From contig CAYTTU010000104.1 in assembly GCA_964440905.1 (NCBI GenBank), positions 1-42,068 of the forward strand: 42,068 nt of DNA, in the 5' to 3' direction. A program made the position numbers and the translations under genes. Of this stretch, positions 1 to 33,975 are shown in pieces; within the stretch, counting starts at the first letter, position 1; the number at the start of each line of letters is the position of its first letter. The notes under the pieces were generated by a model. The model searched no databases. It was not told the origin of the DNA and worked only from the letters and a program-made list of their open reading frames with translations. The DNA is from an uncultured Acidimicrobiia bacterium. Its GTDB lineage: Bacteria > Actinomycetota > Acidimicrobiia > Spongiisociales > UBA11373.

Positions 1-79
1 AAGTCGAGGAATCCGACGGTCAGACCTTTGCCCATTCGATCCGCTTCGGCGCGGATGGGCACTGAAGAGAGTTACCAGT

Positions 80-202
80 CGCCCGACGCCCGACGCCCGC
101 CAGAGACCCATGGCTCACGGCTCACAGCTAGGACTCCGGACTCAGGACTCAGGACTCTGAACTCTGAACTCCAAACTCCAAACAGCCGACAGCTGGAAGC
201 TG
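80..202. repeat. heptanucleotide tandem-repeat tract (CGCCCGA x3, GGCTCAC x2, ACTCCGG, ACTCAGG x2, ACTCTGA x2, ACTCCAA x2, ACAGCCG, ACAGCTG, GAAGCTG)
   Basis: Direct reading. From 126 to 202 the 7-bp phase is unbroken across eleven units. The tract ends 6 bp before the hydrolase stop codon at 208-210. Confidence 0.9.
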
Positions 203-207
203 GCGCC

Positions 208-1392
208 TCACCGCCCCACCCTCTCCAGGTACTCGCTGTGCACCTTCTCCAACCAAGCCGCGGCCGTCGCCGCCACGGCGCGGCCCCGCGGCCCGGCAAA
301 GAAGTCGAACCCGTGGTTGGCCCAGCGCACCTCGAGCAGTTCTGCCTCCGCTCCCCCAGCGGTGCGCAGCGCATCGACCAGACGTCGTGACAACACCGGC
401 GGCACCACGGTGTCGCCGTCACCGTGGATCACCAGGAAGGGAGGGCGGCGGTCGGTGGCCAGGCGGATCGGTGAGGCGCTGGCCCAACGGGAGCCGTCCA
501 TCTCGGGGGACACCTTGATCACCGACGTCTCCAGGTAGGGCCACAAGGGCCTGCCTGAGTCGTCGAGCAGGTCATGCACCCCGTAGAGGGGGATGCAGGC
601 CTGCACCGCGCTGTCGGCGTCCTCGAATCCGGGTTGCAGCGCGGCATTGCCGGCGGTGAGCCCCGCCAGCGCCGCCAGGTTGCCTCCCGTCGATCCCCCG
701 GCGATGGCGATGAAACCCGGGTCCACCCCGAGCTGCGCCGCATTGGATCGCACCCAGGCGATGACCCGCTTGACGTCGACCAGATGATCGGGATGCGTGG
801 CCTCGGGGCTGAGCCGGTAGGACGGAGTGATCACCTGCCATCCCGAGGCTGCCAACCGGTAGAGCATGGGGTGGGCCTGGGTGTGGCGCTTGCCCCGCCA
901 CCATCCGCCACCGTGGATGTGGATCAGCGCCGGTCGTGGCCCGGTGGCGGGATCCGGCCCGAGCCGGTCGAGGACATGACGGGGATGCGGTCCGTACGCG
1001 AGGGCACGATCCACCTGCAGACCGCGGGGCCGCCGGGCAATCGGCATCACCAGGGCGGCGACCCGGGACCATCGCGCCCTTTCGTCGTGTCGCGCTGCGC
1101 CCGAGGCGATGAGCTGCGCCGCGGCGCGGTAGCCGCGGAGCAGGGCGAGACCGAATCCGATCGCGGCGGCAGCGAACAGTATCCGCGTCGTCAGGCCGAT
1201 CCCGACCCCGTCGGCAGCGAACAAACCCAACAGAGCCGCTCCCAACCACCATCCCGCCGCCTCACTCCCCACCATCGCCGCCACCCACACCCAGGGACGG
1301 GTGCGCACCGCGGCCAGCGCCACCAGCGCGATCAGGACGGCGGCGGCGAGGAGCAGGTAGGACACTCCGGGAGGGTAAGCCAACCCGGTCAC
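208..1392 (-). CDS. membrane-anchored alpha/beta hydrolase (fold-3 esterase/lipase-like)
   Basis: 394-aa ORF. The N-terminal ~110 aa are hydrophobic (several predicted TM helices). HGGGW oxyanion-hole motif, GGSTGG nucleophile elbow (GxSxG), C-terminal HGDGD region. Confidence 0.8.
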   Translation of the reverse strand: MTGLAYPPGVSYLLLAAAVLIALVALAAVRTRPWVWVAAMVGSEAAGWWLGAALLGLFAADGVGIGLTTRILFAAAAIGFGLALLRGYRAAAQLIASGAARHDERARWSRVAALVMPIARRPRGLQVDRALAYGPHPRHVLDRLGPDPATGPRPALIHIHGGGWWRGKRHTQAHPMLYRLAASGWQVITPSYRLSPEATHPDHLVDVKRVIAWVRSNAAQLGVDPGFIAIAGGSTGGNLAALAGLTAGNAALQPGFEDADSAVQACIPLYGVHDLLDDSGRPLWPYLETSVIKVSPEMDGSRWASASPIRLATDRRPPFLVIHGDGDTVVPPVLSRRLVDALRTAGGAEAELLEVRWANHGFDFFAGPRGRAVAATAAAWLEKVHSEYLERVGR

Positions 1393-1417
1393 AGGGCGGC
1401 GTCAGGCGGTCCCGGGG

Positions 1418-1423
1418 TATAGT
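1418..1423 (+). promoter_or_regulatory. candidate -10 hexamer TATAGT upstream of the AsnC-like gene
   Basis: TATAGT lies 30 nt upstream of the ATG at 1453. A GAGGAGAG Shine-Dalgarno sits at 1443-1450. No convincing -35 element. Confidence 0.3.
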
Positions 1424-1452
1424 CTCGGCAGACGACGAGCCCGAGGAGAGCA

Positions 1453-1686
1453 ATGGTGGAAGCGTACGTGTTGATCCAGACCGAGGTCGGCAAGGCCGCC
1501 CAGGTCGCCCTCGCCGTTGGCAAGATCGACGGCGTCAAGGCCTCCCAGGCCGTGACCGGACCCTACGACGCCATCGTGCATGCAGTCGCCGACGACGTCG
1601 ATGCCCTCGGCAAGCTCGTCGTGGCCAAGATCCAGGCCATCGAGGGGATCACCCGCACCCTGACCTGCCCCGTGGTGAAGCTCTAA
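1453..1686 (+). CDS. stand-alone Lrp/AsnC ligand-binding (RAM) domain protein
   Basis: 77-aa ORF with a strong SD. The sequence MVEAYVLIQTEVGK...VTGPYDAIVHA...IEGITRTLT is typical of small AsnC-type RAM-domain proteins. Confidence 0.8.
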   Translation: MVEAYVLIQTEVGKAAQVALAVGKIDGVKASQAVTGPYDAIVHAVADDVDALGKLVVAKIQAIEGITRTLTCPVVKL

Positions 1687-1828
1687 GAAGTCATGAGTCT
1701 TGAGTCCTGAGTCCTGAGTCATAAACCAGAGGGACCCGAAACTCAACCGCGACTTCGGGCGCAAGAACCCGGTTTTCGGACTCATGACTCATGAGTCATG
1801 ACTTCCTGACTCATGACTCATGACTTCC
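1687..1828. repeat. composite intergenic element: heptamer array (TGAGTCN x5, 1687-1721), ~50-bp core (1729-1780), inverted heptamer array (TGACTCA/TGAGTCA/TGACTTCC x7, 1778-1828)
   Basis: Direct reading. The two arms are mutually inverted and flank a core with a CCGAAA/TTTCGG closing stem and an internal cUUCGg hairpin. The element lies between the convergent AsnC-like and ddl genes and overlaps the last 6 codons of ddl. Confidence 0.85.
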
Positions 1829-2833
1829 CAGCGCCATCCCCACCAACTCGTCACACAACTCGGCGTACCCCAGACCGGTCGCCTCCCACATCATCGGGAA
1901 CATGGAGCGTGACGTGAACCCGGGCATCGTGTTCACCTCGCTGAGCAGGAACCCGCGGCCCCCCTCCTCGTAGAAGAAGTCCACCCGGGCCAGACCGGCG
2001 CACTCCAGCGCGGTAAAGGCGCGGCACGCCAGGTGGCGCACCATCTCGGTCGCCGCCTCGCTCAGCGCCGCCGGCACCTCGATACGGGTGGCATCGTCGC
2101 GGTACTTGGCGTCGTAGGTGTACCAGCCCGAGGCCACGATGATCTCCCCCGGCACCGAGGCCCGCGGTCCCTCCAGCACCGCCACTTCGATCTCGCGTCC
2201 CTTCACCTCGGCCTCCACCAGCACCTTGCGGTCGTGCTCCAGTGCGAGGTGTATGGCATCTTTGAGCGACCCCTCGTCCGCGGCGCGGCTGATCCCCACC
2301 GACGAGCCCAGGTTGGCCGGCTTGACGAACAGCGGAAAGCCCAACCCACCTCCGATCCGGTCGACCACATCACCCGGTGAGGTGAGGAAGTCGCCCCGCC
2401 GTACCACCATGTAGTCCCCCACCGGAATCCCCGCCTCCCGGCAAAGGCGCTTGGCCACGTCCTTGTCCATGGCGATCGCCGAACCCAGCACCCCGGAGCC
2501 GACGTAGGCGAGACCCGCCATTTCGAACAGGCCCTGAATGGTTCCGTCCTCGCCGTAGGGGCCGTGCAGCACCGGGAAGGCGACGTCGAACTCGACCGGG
2601 GTGCCATGACCGAGCAGCCTTCCCCCGGGAACCTCGAGCTGCACCGCCGGCCCTTCTGCCACCAAGGGATCGGTAGTGGAGTCCGCGAGGTGGAACTCGC
2701 CGAAGGGATCGATCCCCACCGTGACCACATCGTGACCCTGGGACCGCAGCGCCGCCACCGTGGACACAGCCGAAGCGCACGACACCTCGTGCTCCCCAGA
2801 CTTGCCGCCGAAGAACACCGCCACCCGGGCCAC
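1811..2833 (-). CDS. ddl: D-alanine--D-alanine ligase
   Basis: Start trimmed to the GTG at 2833 (VARVAVFFGGKSGEHEVS...), because the longer ORF overlaps fabI. Typical Ddl N-terminus, ATP-grasp body and C-terminal EVNTMPGFT motif. 340 aa. Confidence 0.9.
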   Translation of the reverse strand: MARVAVFFGGKSGEHEVSCASAVSTVAALRSQGHDVVTVGIDPFGEFHLADSTTDPLVAEGPAVQLEVPGGRLLGHGTPVEFDVAFPVLHGPYGEDGTIQGLFEMAGLAYVGSGVLGSAIAMDKDVAKRLCREAGIPVGDYMVVRRGDFLTSPGDVVDRIGGGLGFPLFVKPANLGSSVGISRAADEGSLKDAIHLALEHDRKVLVEAEVKGREIEVAVLEGPRASVPGEIIVASGWYTYDAKYRDDATRIEVPAALSEAATEMVRHLACRAFTALECAGLARVDFFYEEGGRGFLLSEVNTMPGFTSRSMFPMMWEATGLGYAELCDELVGMALGSHES

Positions 2834-2838
2834 CCCGG

Positions 2839-3648
2839 CTACTCCTCGCCCTTGCCGGCGGCGATGGCGTGGAACCCGCCGTCGACGTGGATCACCTCGC
2901 CGCTGGTGGCCGGGGCCCAATCGGAGAGCAGCACGCAGATCATCTTTGCCACCGGGGAGGCATCGTCCACATTCCATCCCAGCGGGGCCCGCTCCGCCCA
3001 AACGTGCTTGAACTGGCCGAACCCGGGGATGTTCTTCGCCGCCACCGTGGCCAGCGGACCGGCCGATACCGCATTCACCCGGATGTGATGCTCTCCGAGG
3101 TCGCGTGCCAGGTAGCGGGTCACCGACTCCAGCGCCGACTTGGCCACGCCCATCCAGTCGTAGGCGGGCCACGCCTGGGTGTTGTCGAAGTCCAGCGTCA
3201 CCAGCGATCCGCCCCCTGCCTTCCGCAGCAGCGGGAGCAGACCCACAGCCAGGGTCTTGTAGGAGAACGCCGAGGTCATGAAAGCGGTGGCGGCGCTCGC
3301 CGCCGGCGTGTTGAGGAAGTTGCCCCCCAGGGCGTCCTCGGGGGCGAAGGCGATGGCATGCAGCGCACCATCCACCGCACCCCAGCGCTCGGTCAGATCG
3401 GTGACCAGCGACTCCATGTGCACCGCGTCGTTGATGTCCAGTTCCACGACGTCGGGCGTCTTGGGAAGACGACCCGCGGCCCGCTGGGTCAGGGCCAGCC
3501 CCCGGCCGAACCCGGTGAGCAGAACCTCGGCTCCCTGTTCCTGGGCGATGCGGGCGGTATGCCAGGCAATCGAGTCGTCGGTGAGCACCCCGGTGATCAA
3601 CAACCGTTTGCCTGAGAGCAACACCGATCCCTCCTGGTCGGCGGACAT
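2839..3648 (-). CDS. fabI: NADH-dependent enoyl-ACP reductase (InhA/FabI type)
   Basis: LLSGKRLLITGVLTDDSIAWHTARIAQEQGAEVLLTGFGR closely resembles the InhA N-terminus. SDR fold. ATG at 3648 is preferred over GTG at 3675. Confidence 0.9.
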   Translation of the reverse strand: MSADQEGSVLLSGKRLLITGVLTDDSIAWHTARIAQEQGAEVLLTGFGRGLALTQRAAGRLPKTPDVVELDINDAVHMESLVTDLTERWGAVDGALHAIAFAPEDALGGNFLNTPAASAATAFMTSAFSYKTLAVGLLPLLRKAGGGSLVTLDFDNTQAWPAYDWMGVAKSALESVTRYLARDLGEHHIRVNAVSAGPLATVAAKNIPGFGQFKHVWAERAPLGWNVDDASPVAKMICVLLSDWAPATSGEVIHVDGGFHAIAAGKGEE

Positions 3649-3656
3649 GGTATCGG

Positions 3657-4013
3657 TCAGTTGACGTTCGCCCACGCCCGCAGCCCCAGGCCCATCACGA
3701 ACAGCAGCAGCAGACCCCAGGCCAGGGCGGGTCGCTTCTCCATCTGGGTGCGGTAGATGTAGGCGAAGGCGAAGGTGAACAGGATCACGAACCCATAGAA
3801 GAGGTGAAAGTCGTTGCCGGGTCGAAAGCCCTGGTTGTAGGCGAGGAAGCCGAGGGTCACCTGGATCAGCATCGTTCCGATGGCGGCATACATGGCGATG
3901 CGGAAGATGCGGTTCGCCTGGCGCTTAGTGACGGCCAGTAAGAGCCCCCACAACCCGACCAAACCGTTGGCGATCACCGCCACCAAGAACCAGGAGGCAT
4001 GCAGGTCGCGCAT
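3657..4013 (-). CDS. small integral membrane protein, unknown function
   Basis: The 118-aa C-terminal part of the 211-aa ORF has four hydrophobic helices. Start set to ATG 4013 because the upstream part overlaps ybaK and is Arg/Gly-rich. Confidence 0.6.
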   Translation of the reverse strand: MRDLHASWFLVAVIANGLVGLWGLLLAVTKRQANRIFRIAMYAAIGTMLIQVTLGFLAYNQGFRPGNDFHLFYGFVILFTFAFAYIYRTQMEKRPALAWGLLLLFVMGLGLRAWANVN

Positions 4014-4051
4014 CGCGAAGGGATGGTAGATGGTCAGGCCCCGAGCCCCGG

Positions 4052-4513
4052 CTACACAGCCCTCGTCACGTCCGCCACCTGTGCTCCCAGGAACCCGATC
4101 AATTCCCCCGCATCGAGGTTGATCGCCACCCCGTGTTCGCCTCCACCGATCGAGGCCAATCCACCCATGGCGGCGTCGGCGATCACCGGGAGCGCCGTGC
4201 GCGAGCCGAACGGCGTGATCGTGCCCGGGGTGTAATCGGTCGCCGCCACTGCTTCCTCTGCCGAGGCGAGCGACAATCGCGACACCCCGCACACCTTGCG
4301 CAGCTTGGCCCAGTCGATCACCCGGTCGCCAGGGACCAGCACCATCAAGAGGTCGCCTTCGGCGCGCCGCACCACGATGGTCTTGATGACTCGATCGAGT
4401 TGGACGCCGCGGGCGATGGCGGCTTCTGCGACCGAGTTCACCTTGCCGTACTCGACCACCTCATGTGCAAGCCCGGAGGCAGCAACCGCTCGCGTTCCCG
4501 GGGTGTCAGCCAT
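4052..4513 (-). CDS. YbaK/EbsC-family aminoacyl-tRNA deacylase
   Basis: 153 aa. The VKTIVVR...LMVLVPGD..IDW.KL.......L..A...E....T.Y.PG.ITPFG pattern is characteristic of YbaK/ProRS-associated editing domains. Confidence 0.8.
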   Translation of the reverse strand: MADTPGTRAVAASGLAHEVVEYGKVNSVAEAAIARGVQLDRVIKTIVVRRAEGDLLMVLVPGDRVIDWAKLRKVCGVSRLSLASAEEAVAATDYTPGTITPFGSRTALPVIADAAMGGLASIGGGEHGVAINLDAGELIGFLGAQVADVTRAV

Positions 4514-6119
4514 CCAGCAATAGGTCGCTGAACTGGTCGCGCACCACCTTCTTGTCGAACTTGCCGGTACCGGTCTTGGGCAGGGAGTCGGTGAACTCGA
4601 TCACGTCGGGCAACCACCACTTGGCGACGCGGGGCTCGAGGTGGGCGAGCAACTCCTCGGCGGACACCTCCATGCCGGGCCGCTTCACCACCAAGGCGAG
4701 CGGTCGCTCCTGCCACTTGACGTGCTTCACCCCGATCACCGCGGCCTCGAGCACCGCGGGATGCGCCATCAACTCCCGCTCCAGGTCGAGCGACGAGATC
4801 CACTCCCCGCCCGACTTGATGACGTCCTTGGCCCGGTCGGTGATGACGATGTACCCCTCCGGCGTGATCTTGCAGACGTCACCGGTGCGCATCCAACCAT
4901 CGACAAAGGTCTCGCGGCGGTCGTCGCGGTAGTACTCCGCCGCGATCCACGGACCGCGGATCAGCAACTCCCCGAAGGCGACCCCATCGTGGAGCAGCGG
5001 GTTGCCTTCCTCGTCGACGATCTTGACCTGCAGTCCGGCGACCGGAAGGCCGGCGGTCTGCAGGATGTCGAGTTGACGGTCGAACGGCAGCGCGGCGTGC
5101 TCGGGCAACAGGGCGGCGATCGAGGCCACCGGGTTGGTCTCGGTCATCCCCCAGCCCTGCTGCACCACGATGCCGCGCTCGCGGTGGAACCACTCGATCA
5201 TGGCCCGCGGCACTGCCGAGCCACCGCACAAGAAGGCCCGAATCGAGGAGGTGTCGACTTCGGGGTGCTCCATCAGGTACTGCTGGATGCCGCCCCACAC
5301 CGTCGGCACCCCGGCGGAGAAGGTGACCCGCTCCTCGGAGAACAGCCGCACCAACCCCGGGGCGGAGAGGTCGGGTCCGGGGTACACCAGCTTGGCTCCG
5401 GCAGTGACCGCACCGAAGGGATAACCCCAGGCCGCGGCGTGGAACATCGGCACCACCGGGAGGACGACGTCGCTGGAGGTGATGGGGAAGGTGGCCAGCG
5501 ACGAGATGGTGTGCAGGTACGTGGAGCGCTGGGTGTAGGCCACCCCCTTGGGGTTGCCGGTGGTGCCCGAGGTGTAACACAGCATCATCGGGGAGCGCTC
5601 GTCGAGCCGGGGCCACTCCTCCCATGGGGCGACATCGGCGATCAGGTCCTCGTAGGCAACCGCATTGGGCAAGGTGGTCGGCGGAACCGTGTCACCCATC
5701 ACCACGAACCGCTCCACGGTGGTGAGGTCGCCGGAAAAACGCTCCACCAGGGGAATCAATCCGGGGTCGATGAACAAAACCTTGTCGCCGGCGTGGTTGA
5801 CGATGTAGGCGAGTTGGTCGGGGAAGAGCCGGATGTTGAGGGTGTGACACACCACGCCGGTGTTGGCGGTGGCCCAGTAGAGCTCGTGGTGGCGGATGTT
5901 GTTCCAGGCAAAGGTGCCGATCGGCTCGCCCGGGGCCGCCCCGAGCCGGTCGAGAGCAGTGGCAAGGCGGCGCACTCGATCGTCGGTGGCGCCGTAGGTG
6001 GTGCGGTGCACCGTGAGATCGTCCTCCACCGAGACGATCTCCCGACCGGGATGGTGCCGCACCGCGTGGTCGTAGAGAGTCGACAGCAGCAGCGGGAAGT
6101 CGTCCATCATGTGCGGCAT
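4506..6119 (-). CDS. AMP-dependent acyl-CoA synthetase (long/medium-chain fatty-acid--CoA ligase)
   Basis: 537 aa. AMP-binding signature YTSGTTGNPKGV, plus GWGMTE and TGD..K...GY motifs and a C-terminal K for adenylation. Confidence 0.9.
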   Translation of the reverse strand: MPHMMDDFPLLLSTLYDHAVRHHPGREIVSVEDDLTVHRTTYGATDDRVRRLATALDRLGAAPGEPIGTFAWNNIRHHELYWATANTGVVCHTLNIRLFPDQLAYIVNHAGDKVLFIDPGLIPLVERFSGDLTTVERFVVMGDTVPPTTLPNAVAYEDLIADVAPWEEWPRLDERSPMMLCYTSGTTGNPKGVAYTQRSTYLHTISSLATFPITSSDVVLPVVPMFHAAAWGYPFGAVTAGAKLVYPGPDLSAPGLVRLFSEERVTFSAGVPTVWGGIQQYLMEHPEVDTSSIRAFLCGGSAVPRAMIEWFHRERGIVVQQGWGMTETNPVASIAALLPEHAALPFDRQLDILQTAGLPVAGLQVKIVDEEGNPLLHDGVAFGELLIRGPWIAAEYYRDDRRETFVDGWMRTGDVCKITPEGYIVITDRAKDVIKSGGEWISSLDLERELMAHPAVLEAAVIGVKHVKWQERPLALVVKRPGMEVSAEELLAHLEPRVAKWWLPDVIEFTDSLPKTGTGKFDKKVVRDQFSDLLLDG

Positions 6120-6146
6120 CCCGATCCCCCTCCCCGCCTACGACGC

Positions 6147-6767
6147 TCAGGCGTCGTCGCCCATCAGCTCCCGCTTCTTGCGATCGAAGTCCTTCTGAGT
6201 GATCAGGCCCTGCTCAAGCAGGGTGGTGTAGCGCTTCAAGGTCGCGGCGCTGTCGTTGCGGTTGTGCATCGTTCCGCTGCGGAGCTCTTTGGTGCGCATC
6301 TCCCGCACGTTGTACACCAGGCCCTGGAACGCCTCGGGCTCGGGGATATCGGCGAACTTCTGCTGCCCATGCTCCCCTGCCGACTCGATCAGCAGGTCCC
6401 CGGAATGGAGCACCCGCTCCAGGATGCTCTGGGAGAACGCCAGGTCGTTGATGTTCTCCAGCGGGATCTCCTTGCCCTTGCGCGACAGGATCCCGCTGCG
6501 GCGGATGATCCGCTCCGTGGTGAGCACGTAGTGGGTAAACCACCAGGCGATGAACGGGTAGAGACCCTTGTAGAGGAACACCACTCCGACCATGGCGGTG
6601 ATGATCCAGTCGAACCCGCTGTTGTCCGGGGGGTACCTCCAGGTGAGGATCACCAGGGCGATCAACAGCACGACCCAGAGAAACGGGATGATGAGGAGCC
6701 GCCAGTGGGGTCGGAACTCGCGGATCACGTCTTCGCCATCGGTGAGCAGGCGGCGTGGGTAGGTCAT
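6147..6767 (-). CDS. bacterial PH-domain (bPH_2/YdbS-like) membrane protein with C-terminal SHOCT domain
   Basis: 206 aa. L..GE.V..EFRPHW start, two TM helices, a PH-like body, and a LKRYTTLLEQGLITQKDFDRKKRELMG tail typical of SHOCT. Confidence 0.7.
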   Translation of the reverse strand: MTYPRRLLTDGEDVIREFRPHWRLLIIPFLWVVLLIALVILTWRYPPDNSGFDWIITAMVGVVFLYKGLYPFIAWWFTHYVLTTERIIRRSGILSRKGKEIPLENINDLAFSQSILERVLHSGDLLIESAGEHGQQKFADIPEPEAFQGLVYNVREMRTKELRSGTMHNRNDSAATLKRYTTLLEQGLITQKDFDRKKRELMGDDA

Positions 6768-6777
6768 GGGAGGAAGG

Positions 6778-9057
6778 CTACCCGACTCCCGACGCCCGAC
6801 TCCCGACGCCGGACTCCCGCCTTCTCCACCATGAGACGGCGGGGCCGACCGAGACCAGGACCAGGAGCGACAGCACCGAGATCGCCAGCCCGGGAATCAG
6901 GCCCGGAGGCACGAACCGCACCCGCACCACGTGATGACCCGCCGGGACCGCAACCCCGAGCACCAGTCCGTTGGTGCGCAGCACCGGCGCCGAGTGTCCG
7001 TCGACGCTGGCCCGCCATCCCTCCGCCCACGTGTGCGACAGCACCAGAAGGGAGTCGGTGGCGGCATCCACCACCACCTCGCCGCCATCGAGCACGTCGG
7101 CTGACACCACCGTCCCGGAGAACCCGTCGGAGGTGAAATCGCCGGCGTCGGGGCTGCGCTCCACGTAGGCCACCCGATCGAGGGGCGTGGCTGGATCGAC
7201 CAGGGCGGCGCGGATCTCGGAGAGTGGTGCCACCACCACCGCCCCCACCAGGTAGGCCTCGGGCAGGCGCGGCTCCCGCACCCACCGGATGAAGTCGAGG
7301 CCGGGGATCTGAAACTCCCGCTGCCAACCGACGGCGGCGGGATCGATCCGCTCCTGCAGGATCATCGTGCTCACCCGGAGCACATCGGCGATCCACCCTG
7401 GACCCCACAGGTCGGGACGGGTCGGATTGCCGTGATACAGAAACCCACCGGCAGTCTCCGCCCACTCCCCCTGGAGCAGCGGGTCGTACCCGTTCACCCC
7501 GTGCAGGTCCTTGACCACCGAGAGGCTGCGGAACCCGTACCAGTCCGACGCCCACCGGTCGATCCCGCCCGGGGCGTCGTGGGGCGCGCCGATCGATACC
7601 GCAGACTCGTCGTAATAGGCCGTCGTGGCCTCGGGGTCGGCGGAGATCCGCCACGGCGCCACCGCGGCGAACAGCACCATGTCGATGGCGCACACCGCCA
7701 CCAGTGCCGCCACCCCGATCCGGCGCCACCGCACCGCCAGGACAACAGCAAGCACGACCCCGAAGAGCAGGATCGCGGGACGAGCCAACGCCATGCCCCC
7801 AGCGCTGCCGGCGGCGATTTCACCGCTCACCGGGGCGAAGTGGGGCAGCGCCTCGGCAACGGCGATCACCCCGACCACCCCCACCGCCAGGCCGGGCAGG
7901 AAGCGCCGCGGGGCACGCAGCAGTTCACGGGTCCCGAGGGCGGCGAGTAGCGCCATCACCAGATTCAGCAGCCACACCGTCCGCCCCCAGTGCCGGAACA
8001 AGCTCGCTCCGGGGAGGGCGGTGTACATCACCCTCCCCAGTGGGGTCGATCCGCCCAGAGCCACGATGGTCGCCACCAACCCCACCGCCAACAGAGCCCA
8101 CACGGTGCGGTCCCGCCGCCTGGCGGCGACTCCTACCACGGCCAGGGCGATCACCACCACCCCGGCGTAGGCCCCGGTCTCCTGTATCAGTCCCGTGGTG
8201 GCCCAGTCGCCGTCGATCGAGCCACCGAACAGGTATGGGAACAGCAGCATCAGGAACTGGTGCGGGAGGATCGAGCCCTCGAAGGCGGCGGCGACGTCGA
8301 GGGTGGGCCGCACGCTGGTACGGCTGAACTCGAACAGCGGCAGCAGCTGGATCATCGCCAGACCGACACCGCAACCCAGCGCCAGCCCCACCCGGCCCAG
8401 GGCGGGCCAGTCGGGTCGTCGCCCCGCAACCCGGGCAACGGCGTACACCGCGACGCCGAGACCGGCCATCCACAGCAGCTGGGGTTGTCCCAGCAGGCCA
8501 GTCAGCGCCAGGGGTACCGCCACCAGCAGTGCCCGCGGCGCGGACCAGCGCTCCACGAGCAGATCGACCCCGAGGAAGGCGAGCGGCAGCCACGCCGCCG
8601 CGGCGAGGAAGGCGGGGTGCATCAGATGGAACACGACGTATCCGCTCAGGGCGTACCCGGCGCCGGCGATGACCGCCCCGGGCCGGGACCGCCAGCGATG
8701 CCACGCCCAGGCGAAAGCGGCCAGCCCGGCCGCCCAGAGGTGAAAGAGGAACCACCAGCGGTAGGCCTCCACCGGTTCCAACCATCCGAAGACGACATTG
8801 AAGGGATAGAACACCGCGAATTGGCCGGTGCCCACCGTCGAGTGCCCGGCAAAGATGTTCGGGTTCCAGAAGGCAGCGCCCGGGCCGCGGATCTCCCGCC
8901 ACACCGATGCGAAGAAAGGGACGGTTTGCTCGTTGACGTCGCCGTACATAGCGGTGCGCGAACCGGTGAGCACTCCGGAAAAGGGCACAGTCACCGCGGC
9001 GAGGGTGGCGGCGATCGAGAGCCACCAACCGCGAACCAGTCCCCAGAGTGCCCGCAT
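6778..9057 (-). CDS. large polytopic membrane protein, YfhO-like (putative glycosyl-transfer/cell-envelope function)
   Basis: About 760 aa with many TM helices in the N-terminal two thirds, a soluble C-terminal domain and a final TM. Start set to ATG 9057 (MRALWGLVRGWW) because codons upstream run into heptamer repeats. The last 14 codons lie in the heptamer array 6781-6822. Confidence 0.6.
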   Translation of the reverse strand: MRALWGLVRGWWLSIAATLAAVTVPFSGVLTGSRTAMYGDVNEQTVPFFASVWREIRGPGAAFWNPNIFAGHSTVGTGQFAVFYPFNVVFGWLEPVEAYRWWFLFHLWAAGLAAFAWAWHRWRSRPGAVIAGAGYALSGYVVFHLMHPAFLAAAAWLPLAFLGVDLLVERWSAPRALLVAVPLALTGLLGQPQLLWMAGLGVAVYAVARVAGRRPDWPALGRVGLALGCGVGLAMIQLLPLFEFSRTSVRPTLDVAAAFEGSILPHQFLMLLFPYLFGGSIDGDWATTGLIQETGAYAGVVVIALAVVGVAARRRDRTVWALLAVGLVATIVALGGSTPLGRVMYTALPGASLFRHWGRTVWLLNLVMALLAALGTRELLRAPRRFLPGLAVGVVGVIAVAEALPHFAPVSGEIAAGSAGGMALARPAILLFGVVLAVVLAVRWRRIGVAALVAVCAIDMVLFAAVAPWRISADPEATTAYYDESAVSIGAPHDAPGGIDRWASDWYGFRSLSVVKDLHGVNGYDPLLQGEWAETAGGFLYHGNPTRPDLWGPGWIADVLRVSTMILQERIDPAAVGWQREFQIPGLDFIRWVREPRLPEAYLVGAVVVAPLSEIRAALVDPATPLDRVAYVERSPDAGDFTSDGFSGTVVSADVLDGGEVVVDAATDSLLVLSHTWAEGWRASVDGHSAPVLRTNGLVLGVAVPAGHHVVRVRFVPPGLIPGLAISVLSLLVLVSVGPAVSWWRRRESGVGSRASGVG
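6781..6822. repeat. heptamer array CCCGACT/CCCGACG x6 (minus strand GGGAGTC/GGGCGTC)
   Basis: Direct reading. It lies inside the 3' end of the YfhO-like ORF and encodes ...ESGVGSRASGVG. Confidence 0.9.
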
Positions 9058-9100
9058 CGGCGGGTGAGTGTATGGGGAGACGGAAGCCGGAGGCTGGATT

Positions 9101-9156
9101 GGAGTTTGGAGTTTGGAGTTTGGAGTTTGAGGGGAGACTCTCAACTCTGAACTTCT
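9101..9156. repeat. heptamer arrays GGAGTTT x4 (9101-9128), then ACTCTCA ACTCTGA ACTTCTC (9136-9156)
   Basis: Direct reading. GGAGTTT is the reverse complement of the ACTCCAA family seen at 168-181. ACTCTGA is identical to the units at 154-167. Confidence 0.9.
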
Positions 9157-9161
9157 CCAGA

Positions 9162-9476
9162 CGCGAGAAACCCCGAGGGAGTCCGGCCGAAGCCTCGCCC
9201 TCTCGGGGTTCCCCGAGCGAAACGCACCTTGCGGGACGCCTCTGCACTACGCCTCGGAACGAATCCGTGTGCGAAGCCTGGCCCGGCGACCGCAGCGACA
9301 GCTTTCGCCCGCTGCGACCCTCTCTTGCGAGAGCTAGGTCGGAAGCCTCCTCCAGGAGTTGCCTCCCTTTGGCTCCCCGGGTCACCCCGAGTGGTAACCG
9401 GGAAGATACGACAGGCTGCTCCCGAGGTCAAACGAAAACGCTGTTGAGATTTCGCGCAAGGAGAACGGTTTTCGCG
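9162..9476. repeat. copy A of a ~315-bp hairpin-rich element (candidate structured RNA or MITE-like element)
   Basis: Aligns end to end with 9717-10035. Conserved hairpins at 9185-9194, 9223-9233, 9320-9333, 9355-9366 and 9376-9402. Complementary termini CGCGAGAAACC / GGTTTTCGCG. No credible ORF. Confidence 0.75.
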
Positions 9477-9498
9477 GGGGCCCGGGAGATGAAGCTGC

Positions 9499-9534
9499 GA
9501 GCCCATGAGCCACGAGCCACGAGCCATGAGCCAG
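9499..9534. repeat. heptamer array GAGCCAY x4-5
   Basis: Direct reading: GAGCCCAT GAGCCAC GAGCCAC GAGCCAT GAGCCAG. Confidence 0.85.
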
Positions 9535-9563
9535 CTCGAGGATCGGACAAGGGCCACGGGGAT

Positions 9564-9584
9564 CGCTCATCGCTCATCGCCACC
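9564..9584. repeat. heptamer array CGCTCAT CGCTCAT CGCCACC
   Basis: Direct reading. The array is enclosed by a short ATCGC/GCGAT inverted repeat (9562-9589). Confidence 0.7.
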
Positions 9585-9620
9585 GCGATTCGGGCACCCG
9601 GTCGTCGGGAGGAGGGCATC

Positions 9621-9697
9621 GGGCGACGGGCGACGGGCGACGGGAGACGGGCGACGGGCGACGGGCGACGGGCGACGGGCGACGGGCGTCGGGCGAC
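9621..9697. repeat. 11-unit heptamer array GGGCGAC (variants GGGAGAC, GGGCGTC) with a G-quadruplex-type motif on the plus strand
   Basis: Direct reading. There are eleven consecutive units with G3 tracts separated by 4-nt loops. Confidence 0.95.
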
Positions 9698-9716
9698 GGC
9701 CCCGAAGGGCCCACCA

Positions 9717-10035
9717 CGCGGAAAAGCCCCGAGTGAGTCTCGGCCGAAGCCTGCACCCTCCCGGGGCTTCCCGTTCGAAACGCTCCTTCCGAAGCGCTCC
9801 TGTCCCCCGCCTCGGAGCGAATCCGTGAGCGAAGGCCGGCCCGGCGACCACAACGATGCTTATCGCTCGCTGCGACCCTCCCTTGCGGGAGCGAGGCCGG
9901 ATGCCGCCTCCAGGAGTTGCCTCCCTTCGGCCCCCCCGGGTCACCCCAGGTGGTAACCGGGAAGATACGGGCGCCTTACCCAAGCGTCAAACCAGAACGC
10001 TGCTGAGATTTCGCGTGCGGAGAGCAGATTTCGCG
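9717..10035. repeat. copy B of the ~315-bp hairpin-rich element
   Basis: Direct repeat of 9162-9476, roughly three quarters identical by eye. Matching hairpins at 9742-9751, 9781-9796, 9878-9891, 9913-9924 and 9935-9961. Confidence 0.75.
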
Positions 10036-10044
10036 GAGGAAGCG

Positions 10045-10108
10045 GTCAGCTGTCAGCTATCAGCTTTCAGCCAGACGCCTCTTCGCCCATCGCTCATCGC
10101 CCATCGCC
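10045..10108. repeat. heptamer arrays GTCAGCT x4 (10045-10072) and CATCGCY x4 (10081-10108)
   Basis: Direct reading: GTCAGCT GTCAGCT ATCAGCT TTCAGCC, then CTTCGCC CATCGCT CATCGCC CATCGCC. Confidence 0.9.
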
Positions 10109-10161
10109 TCTCCGGCGACCGGCATCTGGCCTCCGGACGCCTCCTACTCTCCCCCGCGCAC

Positions 10162-11397
10162 ATGTCCACCAGGCTCCTGACGCGCGGCTTCGTCCTCGCC
10201 TGGCTGCTCAGCTTCTTCTCCGGTCTGGCCTTCTTCCTGTTCGTGCACTTCCCCCGCTACCTGGAGGATCTCGGAGCCGACCCCGCCGAAGTCGGCCGGA
10301 TCGTCGGGGCCACGGCGCTGGCGGCGATCGCCATTCGTCCGCTGGTGGGCCGGGCGATGGACCGCCGGGGTCGCCGCCCGGTGGTGCTATTCGGCAACGC
10401 AGTCCACGTGGTCGCGCTCCTGCTCTATCTCACCGTCGACCACATCGGACCGTGGCTCTACGCGGTGCGAATCCTCCACGGCTTCGGGGAGGCGTTGCTC
10501 TTTGCCGCCACCTTCACCATCGCCGCCGACCTGGTCCCGGCAGAACGCCGCACCGAGGGTCTGGCGCTGTTCGGGGTCTCGGGGCTACTGCCTATCGCCG
10601 TGGGCGGGGTGTTAGGCGACTTCCTTCTGAGTCGGTTCGCGTTCGAGTCGATCTTCCTCGCCGCCCTCGGCCTCGGGGCGCTGGCGCTGCTGCTGGCCTT
10701 GCCGCTCCCCGAGACGGTCACGCCGGCGGCGGCGGAACACCACCTGCCCTTCCTCACCTCGCTGCGCCAACGCGACCTCATCCCGATCTGGTGGATCACC
10801 CTGGTGTTCTCGCTGGCGCTGACCGCCTACTTCACGTTCCTGCGGCTCTACATCGACGAGAGCGGAATCGGCTCGATGGGCGGGTTCTTCGGGGCCTACG
10901 CCACCACCGCGGTGCTGCTTCGCCTGTTCGCCGGGTGGCTCCCCGACCGCATCGGACTGAAACGGGTGCTCTACCCGGCGATGCTGGTGTTTGCCACCGG
11001 TCTGTTGCTTCTGGCGGCGGCCCACTCGGCCACGGCCGTGGTGGTGGCCGGGGTGTTCTGCGGGGCGGGGCACGGCTACGGGTTCCCGATCCTGTTCGCC
11101 CTGTGTTTCAGCCGGGCCCGCCCCGCCGCCCGCGGAACCGCGGCGGTGATCTTCACCGGTCTGTTCGACGTCGGAATCCTTGCCGGCGCCCCGGTTCTGG
11201 GCTGGGTCGCCAACCAGTTCGGGTACCCGACGATGTTCCGTCTGGCGGCGATGTGGGTGGCGGTGGGGTTGGTTTCGTTCGCCTTCTGGGACCGCGACCT
11301 GCGCTTTCCCGGCCGGGCGAACTACAGACGTGTCACTCCCGACCCGTATAGTCCGGTTCATGCCGTTGGAGACCCTGTCCCCGAGCCGGGCGAGTGA
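10162..11397 (+). CDS. MFS transporter
   Basis: 411 aa from ATG 10162 (MSTRLLTRGFVLAWLL...). About 12 TM helices and a G.A.DR.GRR loop after TM2. The longer ORF start lies inside the repeat region. Confidence 0.8.
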   Translation: MSTRLLTRGFVLAWLLSFFSGLAFFLFVHFPRYLEDLGADPAEVGRIVGATALAAIAIRPLVGRAMDRRGRRPVVLFGNAVHVVALLLYLTVDHIGPWLYAVRILHGFGEALLFAATFTIAADLVPAERRTEGLALFGVSGLLPIAVGGVLGDFLLSRFAFESIFLAALGLGALALLLALPLPETVTPAAAEHHLPFLTSLRQRDLIPIWWITLVFSLALTAYFTFLRLYIDESGIGSMGGFFGAYATTAVLLRLFAGWLPDRIGLKRVLYPAMLVFATGLLLLAAAHSATAVVVAGVFCGAGHGYGFPILFALCFSRARPAARGTAAVIFTGLFDVGILAGAPVLGWVANQFGYPTMFRLAAMWVAVGLVSFAFWDRDLRFPGRANYRRVTPDPYSPVHAVGDPVPEPGE

Positions 11398-12136: not shown

Positions 12137-12140
12137 GAGA

Positions 12141-13424: not shown

Positions 13425-13515
13425 GAGACCTTCCGTGTGGCGGACGGCACAATCTAACGAGGCAGGAATGCTCCCCGGCGGGCAATCCGTCGCTGCCCCC
13501 GGTTAGGTTGACCCC

Positions 13516-20499: not shown

Positions 20500-20524
20500 C
20501 GCGTCGCAGGCTAACCGCGGGACC

Positions 20525-23187: not shown

Positions 23188-23233
23188 GCGGTACTCCCTC
23201 CGGACTGCTGCCCCGTCGAGGGGATTATCGCGA

Positions 23234-24307: not shown

Positions 24308-24356
24308 AGTGGGGATCGTACCGTCGCCGACTGGGGCCTCTTGCCGTGATACCAGT

Positions 24357-31203: not shown

Positions 31204-31233
31204 ACGCGGTCGTATAGGTCCCGGCGCCTCAGA

Positions 31234-31263
31234 AGCTCTGAGCTGACAGCTGACAGCTCAGAG
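31234..31263. repeat. heptamer array AGCTCTG AGCTGAC AGCTGAC AGCTCAG forming a 10-bp-stem hairpin (31236-31263)
   Basis: Direct reading. CTCTGAGCTG pairs with CAGCTCAGAG around an 8-nt loop. The array fills the 61-bp spacer between the herA stop and the sbcD start. Confidence 0.8.
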
Positions 31264-31264
31264 G

Positions 31265-32977
31265 TCATCGCAGCCCATCAAACGCGTCCTCATCCCCGTC
31301 GGCTACTTCTTCCTTGCGGGTCGCCCAGGGTGGGAAGGGGAAGTCCACCACCAGGGGGACCGGAATCGATGGCTGGGACAGGACCATCGTTCCGGGCTTG
31401 AGCAGCCGGGCCCGGGCCCGGGTGGAGGGGAGCATCCACCCGTACTCGGATCGCTCCGCCTCAGCGGCATCGAGACGCCCCGCCACCCGCAGAGCGGCGT
31501 TCTCCAGCACTTCGGCGGCGACCCGCGACGCGGTCTGCTGGGCCCCGACCAGGATCACTCCGAGCGACCTCCCCCGCTGGGCGATGTCGATCAGCATGTC
31601 TTTTATCGGGCTCTGCCCATCACGCGGGGCGTACTTGTTCAGCTCGTCGAGCACCACCACCGATAGCGGGAGCCTCTGCCCGGTCCCCTCCTTTTCGGCG
31701 AAGGCCTCGGCGAGTAGGGCTCCCACCACGAACCGCTGTCCGAGATCGTGCAAAGTGTTGAGAGCGACGACGGTGACCTGTGCGGCGGAGCGGTCGATGC
31801 GGTTGCTCTCACCGGCGCGGATCAGGTGCCCGACTCGCACCACGGCGGCGTGCAGCCGGCGCATGAAGGCCGACACCGTCCCCGGCTGCACCCGTCCAGT
31901 CCACTTGATGTCGGGCTCCCCGTCGGCGGGATCGAGGTACTCCTCGAGCGCCATCACCAGCGTGGCCAGATCGGAGATGACCCGCTCCCCCTTGTCGGGT
32001 CGCACCGTGGCGCCCCGCTGGTGACCCTCCGACGGATCGCGCAACACCACCGCCCCCGGCACTCCGGCCACGTCCACGGCAAAGCGGCGCAGCTGCGACT
32101 CGATCCGCTCTGCCACGAACGAGATCTGATTGCGGGCGTCGGAGGCATCGGTGAACAGGAACCGGAGCAAACCCTCGTCGATGAACTCGCGCAGCGTCCA
32201 GGCGAACACGGTGACGTCCTGGCGTCCGGCGATGTCGGGCACCATCACGTCGCCCGAGCGGGGACGGGGCGGCGCCCACAGCGAAACCGACGGGAAGGGG
32301 CCGGGCTCCACACCCAGCGCCGCCCACTGCGCGGCTGCCTCAGGAGTGAAGTGACGGTTGGGCTTGTCGAGCCAGATCAGGTCCTCACCCTTGACGTTGA
32401 ACACCAGCACCCGCAGGTTCTTGCCGGCGTCGCCGGTGATGTCACGCCTCCCGGTGAGCATCCGCAGAAAGAACAGAGCGAACGAGGTCTTGGTGGCGAC
32501 CCCGGAGATGCCCGAGATCGACATGTGACCTCCCTTACGCCCGTCGAAGAAGTCGAGATCGATGTACAGCGGCTCGCCGTCGCGGCCTATCCCCACGGGG
32601 AGAGGGCGGCCCATCTCATCGACGTAGAGGGCCTTGTCGCGCTCGGCGCCCCGGGCGCGACGCACCTCCCCGCCCGGATCGGGAGCCACCCAGACCTCGG
32701 GAGCAACCCGGGTGATCGCCACCTGGGCAGAACGGACCTTGGCGGCGGGCAGCGAACCCTCGGCGGCGATACGGAAAGTGTCCGACTCGAAGGAAGCGCC
32801 CTCGTATACCGCCTCCACCTCGGTGACCACACCGTACGTGGCGACGGATCCGGCGCCGGGCACGTCGGTGTCGACCACGACCAGGTCGTCGAGCTGCAGG
32901 TAGGCATCGTCGCCCATCACTACCCGGAACTCCCGGGTGTTGGTGTGCTGACTGCCGATCACCCGCCCTACCGTCAT
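31265..32977 (-). CDS. herA: HerA-like hexameric ATPase/helicase (FtsK-HerA superfamily, DUF87)
   Basis: 570 aa from ATG 32977, an ATGA overlap with the nurA stop. HAS-barrel-like N-terminus (VGRVIGSQHTNTREFRVVM), P-loop SGISGVATKTS, Walker B VVVLDELNKYAP, VILVGAQQ. The upstream 235 codons of the long ORF are rejected. Confidence 0.75.
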   Translation of the reverse strand: MTVGRVIGSQHTNTREFRVVMGDDAYLQLDDLVVVDTDVPGAGSVATYGVVTEVEAVYEGASFESDTFRIAAEGSLPAAKVRSAQVAITRVAPEVWVAPDPGGEVRRARGAERDKALYVDEMGRPLPVGIGRDGEPLYIDLDFFDGRKGGHMSISGISGVATKTSFALFFLRMLTGRRDITGDAGKNLRVLVFNVKGEDLIWLDKPNRHFTPEAAAQWAALGVEPGPFPSVSLWAPPRPRSGDVMVPDIAGRQDVTVFAWTLREFIDEGLLRFLFTDASDARNQISFVAERIESQLRRFAVDVAGVPGAVVLRDPSEGHQRGATVRPDKGERVISDLATLVMALEEYLDPADGEPDIKWTGRVQPGTVSAFMRRLHAAVVRVGHLIRAGESNRIDRSAAQVTVVALNTLHDLGQRFVVGALLAEAFAEKEGTGQRLPLSVVVLDELNKYAPRDGQSPIKDMLIDIAQRGRSLGVILVGAQQTASRVAAEVLENAALRVAGRLDAAEAERSEYGWMLPSTRARARLLKPGTMVLSQPSIPVPLVVDFPFPPWATRKEEVADGDEDAFDGLR

Positions 32978-33912
32978 GCCGCCGCCTCCACCGCAGTGCG
33001 CAGCGCCCGCAGCACCAGACCGGCATCGCCGAGGCGGTGGCGCAGATCCCGCTCCAGGGCGGCGATGGGCACCAGATTCTGTGGGGCCCGGGGATCGATG
33101 TGAGCCTCCGAGCCGACCTGGGGAAGCACCGCGGCCGAACGGTCGGCCACCGCGGCCACCTCGTCGCGGGGCAGCGACGCCGATGCCTCGGCGCGGGCGA
33201 TTCCCGACCAGGAGTGTCCGACGCCGCGGTCGGTGAGGCGGAGATACCACGAGTAGCGCCGGAACCTCCCCTCCCCAATGGTGAACAGCGGGGTCCGCTG
33301 CCCGGCGGGGAGCACCCCGATGATGCCGGCGTGGGTAGGCGGCAGGTAGGAGCGGCGGTGGCTCTTGATGTAGCCGATCTTGGGGACATCGGTGTACTCG
33401 TAGAGCGGCCCATCGGCGACCACGAAGTACCCCGAGCGAGCCAGGTCCTCGGCCAGTTCCGCCTCGGCGCGGCGCATGGCGTCGTGGAACGCCATGACCA
33501 ACGACGCCGGGTCGTCGCCGGGAACCGATGCGGTGCGGTACGACAGCCCCAGGGGAAGGTCGGGGATCTGGGGCTGGCGACCCGACGAAAGGAGGGCGAC
33601 CCGGCGCACCGTTGGCTGCTCGATGGTGCTGCGGTGCTCGGTGCGCCACCACACCGCGGCCCCCACGCCGAACGAACCGCACAGGCCGGTGATCGGACCG
33701 GCATCGTCGTCGAGAACGAGGCGGGCATCGACGCGGCGCACCCCGTCGACGAATGCCACCACCGGGATGCCGTCGTCATGTCCCGGGATCGGCTCCCAGG
33801 GCCGCCGCTCCACGGTGAGATCGACCGCCCCCTCAGCCGGCGTGAGCTCCGCATCGGGCTCGATCGACGATCCGTACTCCGGTGCCCAGCCCTCGACGTG
33901 CAGGCGGCTCAT
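32974..33912 (-). CDS. nurA: NurA-family nuclease
   Basis: 312 aa. AFVDGV, VVADGPL and IGYIKSH segments fit the NurA catalytic Asp / DG / K-S motif order. Obligate gene neighbour of herA. Confidence 0.65.
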   Translation of the reverse strand: MSRLHVEGWAPEYGSSIEPDAELTPAEGAVDLTVERRPWEPIPGHDDGIPVVAFVDGVRRVDARLVLDDDAGPITGLCGSFGVGAAVWWRTEHRSTIEQPTVRRVALLSSGRQPQIPDLPLGLSYRTASVPGDDPASLVMAFHDAMRRAEAELAEDLARSGYFVVADGPLYEYTDVPKIGYIKSHRRSYLPPTHAGIIGVLPAGQRTPLFTIGEGRFRRYSWYLRLTDRGVGHSWSGIARAEASASLPRDEVAAVADRSAAVLPQVGSEAHIDPRAPQNLVPIAALERDLRHRLGDAGLVLRALRTAVEAAA

Positions 33913-33953
33913 GGTGGCGGATGGTAGCGATGGGGAGTGACGGCTTTCGGAGC

Positions 33954-33975
33954 CGTGAGTGTCAGCTGACAGCTC
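33954..33975. repeat. heptamer units CGTGAGT GTCAGCT GACAGCT, including the perfect palindrome GTCAGCTGAC
   Basis: Direct reading, in the divergent nurA / UMF1-MFS intergenic region. Preceded by a CGGCT-TTCGG-AGCCG hairpin. Confidence 0.75.

Follow-up and report, generated by a model that had tools for sequence, protein, structure and literature searches.

Short tandemly repeated repetitive (STRR) sequences of cyanobacteria are said, after the work of Mazel and colleagues in 1990, to be built of the heptamer units CCCCAGT, TTGGTCA and CAACAGT. Calothrix PCC 7601 carries three heptamer families (PMC4692102). As far as the study of Mrázek et al. (2007; PNAS 104:8472) is relayed in later papers (PMC4679880, PMC4692102), heptanucleotides are the most abundant class of long simple-sequence repeats (long SSRs) in most genomes, and the ten richest genomes include four Burkholderia, Xanthomonas campestris and three Actinobacteria, all high-GC; heptamer arrays in a high-GC genome are therefore not unprecedented. 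Arrays of GGGAATC in Xanthomonas and of GGGGA(C/T)T in Nostoc PCC 7120 lie between the same gene pairs in related species, vary widely in length and sequence, and now and then form inverted pairs (Rehm et al., 2015; PMC4692102). TAACTGA direct repeats are found in marine Beggiatoaceae, some cyanobacteria and Bacteroidetes (MacGregor, 2015; PMC4679880), and Chloroflexus has a heptamer repeat GATAGRA (PMC6749651). In Haemophilus influenzae, an (ATCTTTC)n tract upstream of hmw1A is phase-variable through slippage that changes its copy number, and in the RNA it supplies one side of a long hairpin (PMC12721329, PMC8262952). The subject here is a set of tandem heptamer arrays in the whole of contig CAYTTU010000104.1, a stretch of 42,068 nt (the window) from the metagenome-assembled genome (MAG) of an uncultured soil/water member of the Acidimicrobiia (Actinomycetota) with 68% GC. 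A literature search found no report of heptamer repeats for Acidimicrobiia, and a 2026 preprint on repeats of Actinomycetota deals with units of at least 10 bp and is silent on heptamers.

The arrays keep a strict period of seven nucleotides while their sequence changes, and they are confined almost entirely to spacers. They are probably hypermutable heptanucleotide repeats of the Mrázek long-SSR type, which, we infer, grow and shrink by slipped-strand misalignment and so fill unconstrained spacer DNA. A gene map built from codon-position composition and Pfam leaves 2.75 kb of the window non-coding and 38.8 kb coding. Tandem Repeats Finder (TRF) calls period-7 arrays at 80-99, 130-183, 1689-1720, 1779-1828, 6781-6819, 9099-9129, 9498-9533, 9562-9580, 9620-9699 (11.4 copies of CGGGCGA), 10041-10071, 10083-10108 and 31241-31258. 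In a separate count of exact runs with at least 10 matched positions, period 7 accounts for 12, period 6 for two and, apart from the multiple 14, the remaining periods between 2 and 15 for none. Recurrences of 6-mers at lag 7 number 141 in the non-coding DNA, against 0-5 at the other non-multiple lags and a mean of 1.1 (maximum 7) in 200 dinucleotide-preserving shuffles. Coding DNA has only 15 such recurrences, a density of 0.39 per kb against 51.8 per kb in non-coding DNA; judged by position, these 15 are expected to stem largely from the array-encoded 3′ ends of the D-Ala-D-Ala ligase gene (ddl) and a YfhO-like gene. Tandem units thus occur beyond chance, in up to 11.4 copies, and units of a length not divisible by three are kept out of coding sequence except at these two 3′ ends, where they take up no more than the final 5 codons of ddl and the final 12-13 of YfhO. 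About 16-20% of the non-coding DNA of the window consists of arrays.

These results uphold the first-pass annotation of the window in several respects. It had listed period-7 arrays at positions where TRF and the sequence itself agree, with the exception of 33954-33975, which is weak: TRF makes no call there, and only two units are present, which make a 12-bp palindrome, TGTCAGCTGACA. It had also placed the arrays outside gene bodies save for the last codons of ddl and YfhO, as the 141 non-coding and 15 coding recurrences bear out, and its proposal of a length-specific process, drawn from a 7-bp period that stays constant while the unit changes, is right in substance; the periodicity is independent of sequence. 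Its figure of nine or more gene junctions was too high; the arrays sit in six junctions between protein-coding genes, or in eight spacers if two small-RNA genes (9160-10040) are counted.

The same excess is seen in close relatives and fades with distance. Relatives' loci were supplied by a scan of species-representative genomes with ddl, and a spectrum of periods 4-12 was pooled over about 105 kb comprising the window and its closer relatives. In this clade pool, period 7 accounts for 37 arrays (1,162 bp) and no other period for more than 9, so that period 7 stands above the neighbouring periods in the clade as in the window; the first-pass annotation had named this comparison as one that could refute it, and within the sequence covered it does not. 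Exact period-7 runs in the non-coding DNA of the clade (15.9 kb) comprise 26 of two copies and 14 of three or more, against 1.4 and 0 expected, with periods 4 and 5 at expectation and none at periods 8-12. The nearest representative by ddl, L004, is 89% identical and collinear with window positions 263-6769. Where ddl identity is at least 71%, 11 of 12 loci have arrays, and where it is 65% or less about 140 kb yielded a single weak array; more distant Acidimicrobiia have two period-7 arrays in 148 kb. In 990 kb from other phyla, 34 period-7 arrays are concentrated in few genomes, a density 10-fold below that of the clade pool, although period 7 is still the commonest there among periods that are not multiples of 3, in agreement with Mrázek. 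Several heptamer arrays lie within 12-21 kb each in four loci of other phyla (L022, L027, L039, L076): six in an Anaerolineales MAG, four (CTGGTCG) in a Candidatus Acidiferrum, three in an Acidobacteriota MAG and four (CAGTGGT) in Chakrabartyella piscis. Such scattered arrays in unrelated genomes illustrate a sporadic distribution. One subclade of Acidimicrobiia carries the heptamer excess as a heritable trait. Within the subclade its density varies by degrees: two arrays each were found in L087 and L089, and the 17.5 kb of L088 are free of them.

An artefact of assembly is ruled out by independent Logan contigs of the same strain (L084 and L086), which match the window arrays at 31241 and 33954 base for base, and by relatives' contigs from JGI, ENA and NCBI, which have arrays at the same junctions. 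Look-ups with two other window proteins returned only these same-strain contigs, with no polymorphism. A metagenome scan with the YfhO protein gave a single locus, L085, which lacks arrays, and exact-protein look-ups for the bPH_2, MFS and YfhO proteins found no match.

The arrays of the window are as follows.

72-202: composite heptamer tract, filling 87% of the 142-bp convergent spacer from the stop codon of a cold-shock-domain (CSD)-like gene (63-65) to that of an esterase gene (208-210); its first blocks are CGCCCGA ×3 (80-100), GGCTCAC ×2 (112-125) and GGACTCN ×4 (129-157), followed by ACTCTGA ×2.6 (154-171), AACTCCA ×2.4 (167-183) and CAGCT-type units (184-202)
1687-1721: TGAGTCN ×4.6, beginning 1 nt past the stop codon of an asnC-like gene; left arm of an inverted array pair
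1778-1828: GACTCAT ×6.6, right arm of the same pair, containing a 22-bp higher-order duplication and overlapping the ddl stop codon (1811-1813)
6781-6822: CCCGACK ×5.6, read as GGGAGTC/GGGCGTC on the minus strand; codes for the YfhO-like C-terminus and lies 10 nt upstream of the bPH_2 start codon
9099-9129: TTGGAGT ×4.4, perfect, followed by a degenerate, partly inverted ACTCTNA tract to 9156; the YfhO start (9057) lies to one side and the terminator of small-RNA copy A to the other
9498-9533: GAGCCAY ×5, seen by TRF and in the sequence
9562-9580: CATCGCT ×2.7, seen by TRF and in the sequence
9614-9699: GGGCGAC ×11.4; no other array is as long or as pure (94% matches), and it separates the small-RNA copy B terminator from the sequence upstream of copy A
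10041-10071: TCAGCTN ×4.4, whose variable position reads G, A and T in successive units
10081-10108: CATCGCY ×3.7, ending 53 nt upstream of the start of an MFS transporter gene (10162)
31234-31263: AGCTGAC ×2.6, inside a 28-bp near-palindrome, 2 nt past the stop codon of the upstream minus-strand gene and 31 nt before a metallophosphoesterase start
33954-33975: two units, GTCAGCT and GACAGCT, a weak member in a divergent spacer; identical in L086

At orthologous junctions the arrays turn over rapidly. Between the window and its close relative L002 the flanks are about 98% identical and the arrays differ. After the esterase gene, GTTACCA stands three times in L002 and once in the window (+14 bp, two units), and CATGACT ×5 replaces the middle blocks GGCTCAC/GGACTCA/ACTCTGA of the window; at the asnC/ddl junction of L002, the 1687-1721 array is 9 bp shorter and the 1778-1828 array lacks 23 bp. 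The unit-number polymorphism that the first-pass annotation proposed to look for in close relatives is thus found, as added units, replaced units and indels within arrays, and copy number differs between close strains in the one close pair available. The arrays are the most variable part of otherwise near-identical strains. The junction downstream of the esterase gene has arrays with differing units in the window, L002, L001 and L004, and so has the spacer after the small-RNA terminator in the window, L004, L087, L089 and L008, where no two genomes use the same unit. The asnC/ddl junction, unlike that of the window, is without arrays in L004-L009. Units also change within a tract while the register is kept. 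They alter stepwise in the 72-202 tract, and in the window from GGACTCC through to TGGCGCC, and an unbroken in-register series of 120 bp in L004 runs CGCTGCG > CGTTGCC > TGTGATC > TGTCATC > TCTCGCC > CCTCACC, in blocks of two or three identical units with stepwise change between blocks.

The position of the arrays relative to genes is uneven. From an array to a stop codon that faces it the gap is 0-15 nt, and to a facing start codon it is 31-53 nt; the arrays upstream of YfhO and of the MFS gene are 41 and 53 nt away, respectively. Gene ends are rewritten by the arrays in two cases. ddl ends in MALGSHES* in the window and in MALAK* in L004, its last five codons being array-encoded, and the YfhO-like protein ends in an array-encoded ESGVGSRASGVG*, a tail that is unmatched in the 70%-identical homologue of L085. 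The arrays behave like a tract that expands until it meets sequence under selection. A preference for one type of junction was considered and rejected, as convergent (3 of 9), divergent (5 of 17) and tandem (4 of 29) junctions all have arrays.

Unit families recur at separate junctions. Pairs of units of exactly the same class between junctions number eight, where random heptamers of like composition would be expected to give 0.13. Complementarity is 90% between the arms 129-157 and 1695-1723 and 79% between the arms 6782-6819 and 9662-9699; TTGGAGT (9099-9129), read on the other strand, is exactly the ACTCCAA of 167-183. CATCGCY units occur at two sites (9562-9580, 10083-10108) and CAGCT-based units at four (185-202, 10047-10071, 31235-31259, 33954-33975). 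The claim that families return on either strand therefore stands in general, but its link between GAGCCAY and GGCTCAC is weak, with agreement at 5 of 7 positions. The vocabulary of about six families put forward by the first-pass annotation does recur in the window, but it is a local sample, since at least 26 unit classes are present in the 105 kb of the clade pool. CAGCT units are restricted to the window, L001 and L002, and vocabulary is common within a species group and differs between species. The sequences that flank arrays of the same family are unrelated to each other. Quasi-palindromic units make up 12 of 37, against 12% expected, and about two thirds of the units are neither quasi-palindromic nor contain G runs; the idea that all units are quasi-palindromic was rejected, as only about a third are. 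GANTC and CAGCTG cores as restriction or methylation marks were also dropped, most families being without such cores. Recurrence of families means either that arrays are copied locally or that some units slip more readily. Local copying is suggested by inverted pairs of one family that lie 0.1-3 kb apart, as well as by the unit order CAGCTG/CAGCTA/CAGCTT at 10041-10071, which recurs at a different junction in L001, and a higher slippage propensity of some units is suggested by the enrichment of quasi-palindromic units.

Slipped-strand growth of simple-sequence repeats is favoured because it accounts together for a fixed length with arbitrary sequence, the avoidance of constrained DNA, hypervariability, concerted in-register drift and heritability along a lineage. 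Misalignment at replication or repair would add or remove one or more 7-nt units, and a point mutation within a unit, followed by re-amplification, would give blocks of two or three identical units that morph along the tract, a form of concerted evolution. Growth would continue until a selected sequence is reached; since it ends there, arrays would abut or overrun stop codons and halt 30-50 nt before start codons. Families may reach nearby junctions, often in inverted orientation, by template or strand switching, or alternatively quasi-palindromic units may slip more readily, and their enrichment fits hairpin-stabilised slippage. Effects on the cell, namely a long hairpin between convergent genes, a tract capable of forming a G-quadruplex, new C-terminal tails and variable promoter-to-gene spacing, would be side-effects. 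Several points weigh against this account. Slippage alone gives no reason for seven over 5, 6 or 8, and the sole published idea, as quoted from Mrázek et al. (2007) in later papers (PMC4692102, PMC4679880), is that about 7 nt corresponds to the segment held by the polymerase. Slippage alone also leaves the recurrence of families at separate junctions unaccounted for, so that a dispersal step or a unit propensity would have to be added. Strain polymorphism is seen at two junctions of a single close pair, the window and L002; the same-strain contigs L084 and L086 differ nowhere from the window arrays; and several indels (9 and 22-23 bp) are not multiples of 7. That one junction keeps an array across deep divergence could be due to selection and not to a drifting array having been inherited. 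In a stronger version, the heptamer excess would be a discrete heritable trait switched on in one subclade, its 7-nt register set by a change in replication or repair or by a dedicated enzyme and its arrays spread locally by strand switching; such spread would account for the same-family inverted pairs within a few kb, yet as a whole this version seems unlikely.

Alternatively, the arrays might be selected as periodic platforms for a nucleic-acid-binding protein, of single strands or of duplex, that reads a 7-nt register with little preference for sequence and acts post-transcriptionally or in organising the nucleoid. A candidate for such a reader would be a cold-shock-domain protein, one monomer of which covers 6-7 nt; CspB has been reported on heptamer repeats with one protein per unit (PMC4679880), and a CSD-like gene adjoins the densest tract. 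Specificity for length and not for sequence is what such a reader would impose, the vocabulary recurs across junctions, and one junction keeps an array in five genomes despite full turnover of its units. However, the arrays lie on either strand and in all junction types without positional rule, their copy number ranges from 2 to 11 and orthologous junctions do not conserve their total length, some junctions with arrays in the window have none in close relatives (asnC/ddl, in L004-L009), L088 does without any in its 17.5 kb, and array-poor relatives, too, have the CSD-like gene in this syntenic place. A binding platform is therefore doubtful. A second possibility is that the arrays exist for the structures they would form, hairpins or cruciforms where units are inverted or quasi-palindromic and G-quadruplexes from GGGNNNN, which would terminate, insulate or stabilise transcripts, as was earlier proposed in similar terms for the Xanthomonas GGGAATC and Nostoc GGGGAYT repeats (PMC4692102). 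The inverted arrays between asnC and ddl (1687-1721 with 1778-1828) fold into a long hairpin of -61.8 kcal/mol (z -5.9; 0 of 200 shuffles as stable), the array at 31234-31263 is a 28-bp near-palindrome directly past a stop codon, inverted pairs are also found in L005, L007 and L004, and quasi-palindromic units are enriched. The G3-N4 quadruplex motif is present in the (GGGCGAC)11 tract (9620-9699, plus strand) and in GGGAGTC/GGGCGTC (6781-6819, minus strand). At a threshold of at least four units, each with a run of at least three G, 80-99 falls short with three units and the other ten or so arrays do not qualify. Against a structural role, the largest composite tract (60-210) has no RNA structure beyond that of shuffled sequence (z +0.47), the fold around the near-palindrome (31225-31275) is not significant (z -1.2), two thirds of the units are neither quasi-palindromic nor G-run-containing, and the fixed unit of seven is left unaccounted for. 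Because folding is uneven and most families lack G runs, structure is a trait of some arrays and not their common denominator; a general RNA-structure role was rejected on the unstructured largest tract, and structure as the reason for the arrays is less likely still than a binding platform.

The units might also be footprints of a length-specific cut-and-fill process, either target-site duplications of 7 bp made repeatedly by a mobile element or amplified staggered cuts of a recombinase. Fixed length with arbitrary sequence is a hallmark of target-site duplication, and same-family inverted arrays flank the esterase and asnC genes (129-157/1695-1723), YfhO with one small-RNA copy (6782-6819/9662-9699) and, in L004, an acetyltransferase gene; L004, L087 and L089 have no YfhO at this position, and the acetyltransferase has been lost beside arrays in the window and L002. 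On the other hand, no transposase or element with terminal inverted repeats was found at or between arrays among the genes examined, eleven near-perfect copies would need ten successive hits on one site, and slippage is the better fit to stepwise morphing in register and to strain differences of two units. Nor is the esterase-asnC block mobile cargo, since every relative has it in synteny. Cut-and-fill is accordingly very improbable, the least probable of the readings considered, and slipped-strand growth of simple-sequence repeats is retained.

Two tandem copies of a structured small-RNA gene lie on the minus strand between the arrays (9160-9480 and 9720-10040, about 80% identical), and constitute what had been described as a 315-bp element; their RNAs would run from about 9396 to 9165 and from about 9955 to 9722. 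Each copy has a near-consensus promoter (TTGACC/TTGACG, a 17-nt spacer and TATCTT), paired CGCGAAA motifs upstream, and a strong terminator hairpin followed by U residues; no other promoter-like sites are found within 9000-10200. The gene is syntenic and conserved in L004, L008, L010, L011, L014, L015, L087 and L089, the last with two copies, and an alignment of eight sequences has 61 pairs, 18 of them with compensatory changes. Rfam gave no family on the whole window at the gathering threshold, nor on 9000-10200 at E ≤1, and a search of the window for tRNA and tmRNA genes found none. Given that no Rfam family matches, the small RNA is probably an undescribed one of Acidimicrobiia. The view that the arrays form part of this element was rejected, since the small-RNA gene is conserved and occurs without arrays in distant Acidimicrobiia. 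It is the only long repeat in the window, where no dispersed unit of 20-400 bp like those of miniature inverted-repeat transposable elements (MITE), repetitive extragenic palindromes (REP) or bacterial interspersed mosaic elements (BIME) was found.

Gene content around the arrays differs between relatives. A GNAT acetyltransferase gene between the esterase and CSD-like genes is intact in L004 (6820-7395) and L087 (11346-11891), reduced to a 3′ remnant of about 60 bp in L002 (160-220) and gone in the window, where heptamer arrays stand instead (100-205). The YfhO-like gene (6778-9057) is missing at its position in L004 (1-236), L087 (2833-3447) and L089 (1240-2320), in which the small RNA is followed directly by bPH_2; L085 has YfhO and then bPH_2, as in the window. 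In the window, inverted arrays of the GGGCGAC family (6782-6819, 9662-9699) enclose YfhO together with small-RNA copy A. A DUF222-HNH endonuclease gene is found between a tRNA_edit-like gene and a gene for a hypothetical protein of 118 aa in L087 (6332-7429) and L089 (6064-7155), and the window has only a 38-bp spacer at this position (4013-4052). Clade contigs tend to end at or near heptamer arrays or the duplicated small-RNA gene (window 1-80; L004 1-58; L085 1-50), which suggests that these repeats fragment short-read assemblies. Apart from the arrays, two adjoining direct repeats of 37 nt, 76% identical and spaced by 39 nt, lie at 11481-11556, within a stretch outside mapped genes (11398-11568); they may be a coding repeat of 13 residues at the start of the open reading frame 11569-12150, or a separate feature.

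With these arrays, an uncultured high-GC lineage of actinobacteria joins the various bacteria, here and there in the tree, in which heptamers have settled in the spacers, and it offers a clean view of repeat behaviour: a strict 7-nt period, in-register drift, rapid turnover at fixed junctions, and 3′ ends of genes eroded or rewritten. In practice, the arrays probably break short-read assemblies, create spurious C-terminal extensions in gene calls, and would suit strain typing. If the excess were a discrete trait after all, comparison of the array-rich clade with its array-free sisters would give a handle on the preference of long SSRs for seven bases.

Among described systems, the hmw1A repeat of Haemophilus is a single dedicated contingency locus with demonstrated effects on expression, whereas the window arrays occupy all junction types and lie mostly downstream of genes; a rheostat of the hmw1A kind is conceivable in principle for those that precede YfhO and the MFS gene. 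The TAACTGA repeats are likewise abundant intergenic heptamers, there in 2-6 copies, and the few that fall in open reading frames stand at protein termini. However, they consist of one dominant unit just upstream of start codons, suggesting translational control, whereas the window arrays have many units, avoid the 30-50 nt before starts and hug stops. With the G-rich heptamers of Rehm et al. the window arrays share occasional inverted pairs and, at 9620-9699, 80-99 and 6781-6819, tracts of three or four G every 7 nt; unlike them, only about 3 of 13 arrays are G-tracts, and ACTCCAA, TGAGTCA, GTCAGCT, GAGCCAC and CATCGCT cannot form quadruplexes.

The likeness to the STRR of Calothrix, Nostoc and Anabaena seen by the first-pass annotation is real, in that several heptamer families, six of them recurring in the window, lie in non-coding DNA on either strand and in variable copy number. 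The differences are that the host belongs to another phylum and has 68% GC, that the vocabulary shifts between species of the clade, and that the window units are unrelated, none of them matching an STRR unit. The relative L005 has an inverted pair, AGTCCCC (4133-4162) and GGACTGG (4240-4266), 78 bp apart, which corresponds by circular permutation and complement to the STRR1 unit CCCCAGT (Nostoc GGGGACT), a resemblance that is probably convergent. The window arrays behave like STRR and are not members of that group by sequence or host. They agree most closely with the long SSRs of Mrázek et al., so far as these are portrayed in the later papers, in having tandem 7-nt units beyond chance (there, units of 5-11 nt), mostly intergenic, with many different units and a sporadic, lineage-specific abundance, and polymerase slippage is the cause proposed there as well. 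The window differs from that portrayal in its density, with about 16-20% of non-coding DNA in arrays, and in the joining of several families in register within one spacer. The supposition that no equivalent had been described for such a genome is not supported, as heptamer long SSRs are reported, in the parts of that work relayed by PMC4679880 and PMC4692102, from high-GC Burkholderia, Xanthomonas and Actinobacteria. The phenomenon is thus not new, and the window arrays, which have every defining feature of long SSRs that was tested, belong to this class.

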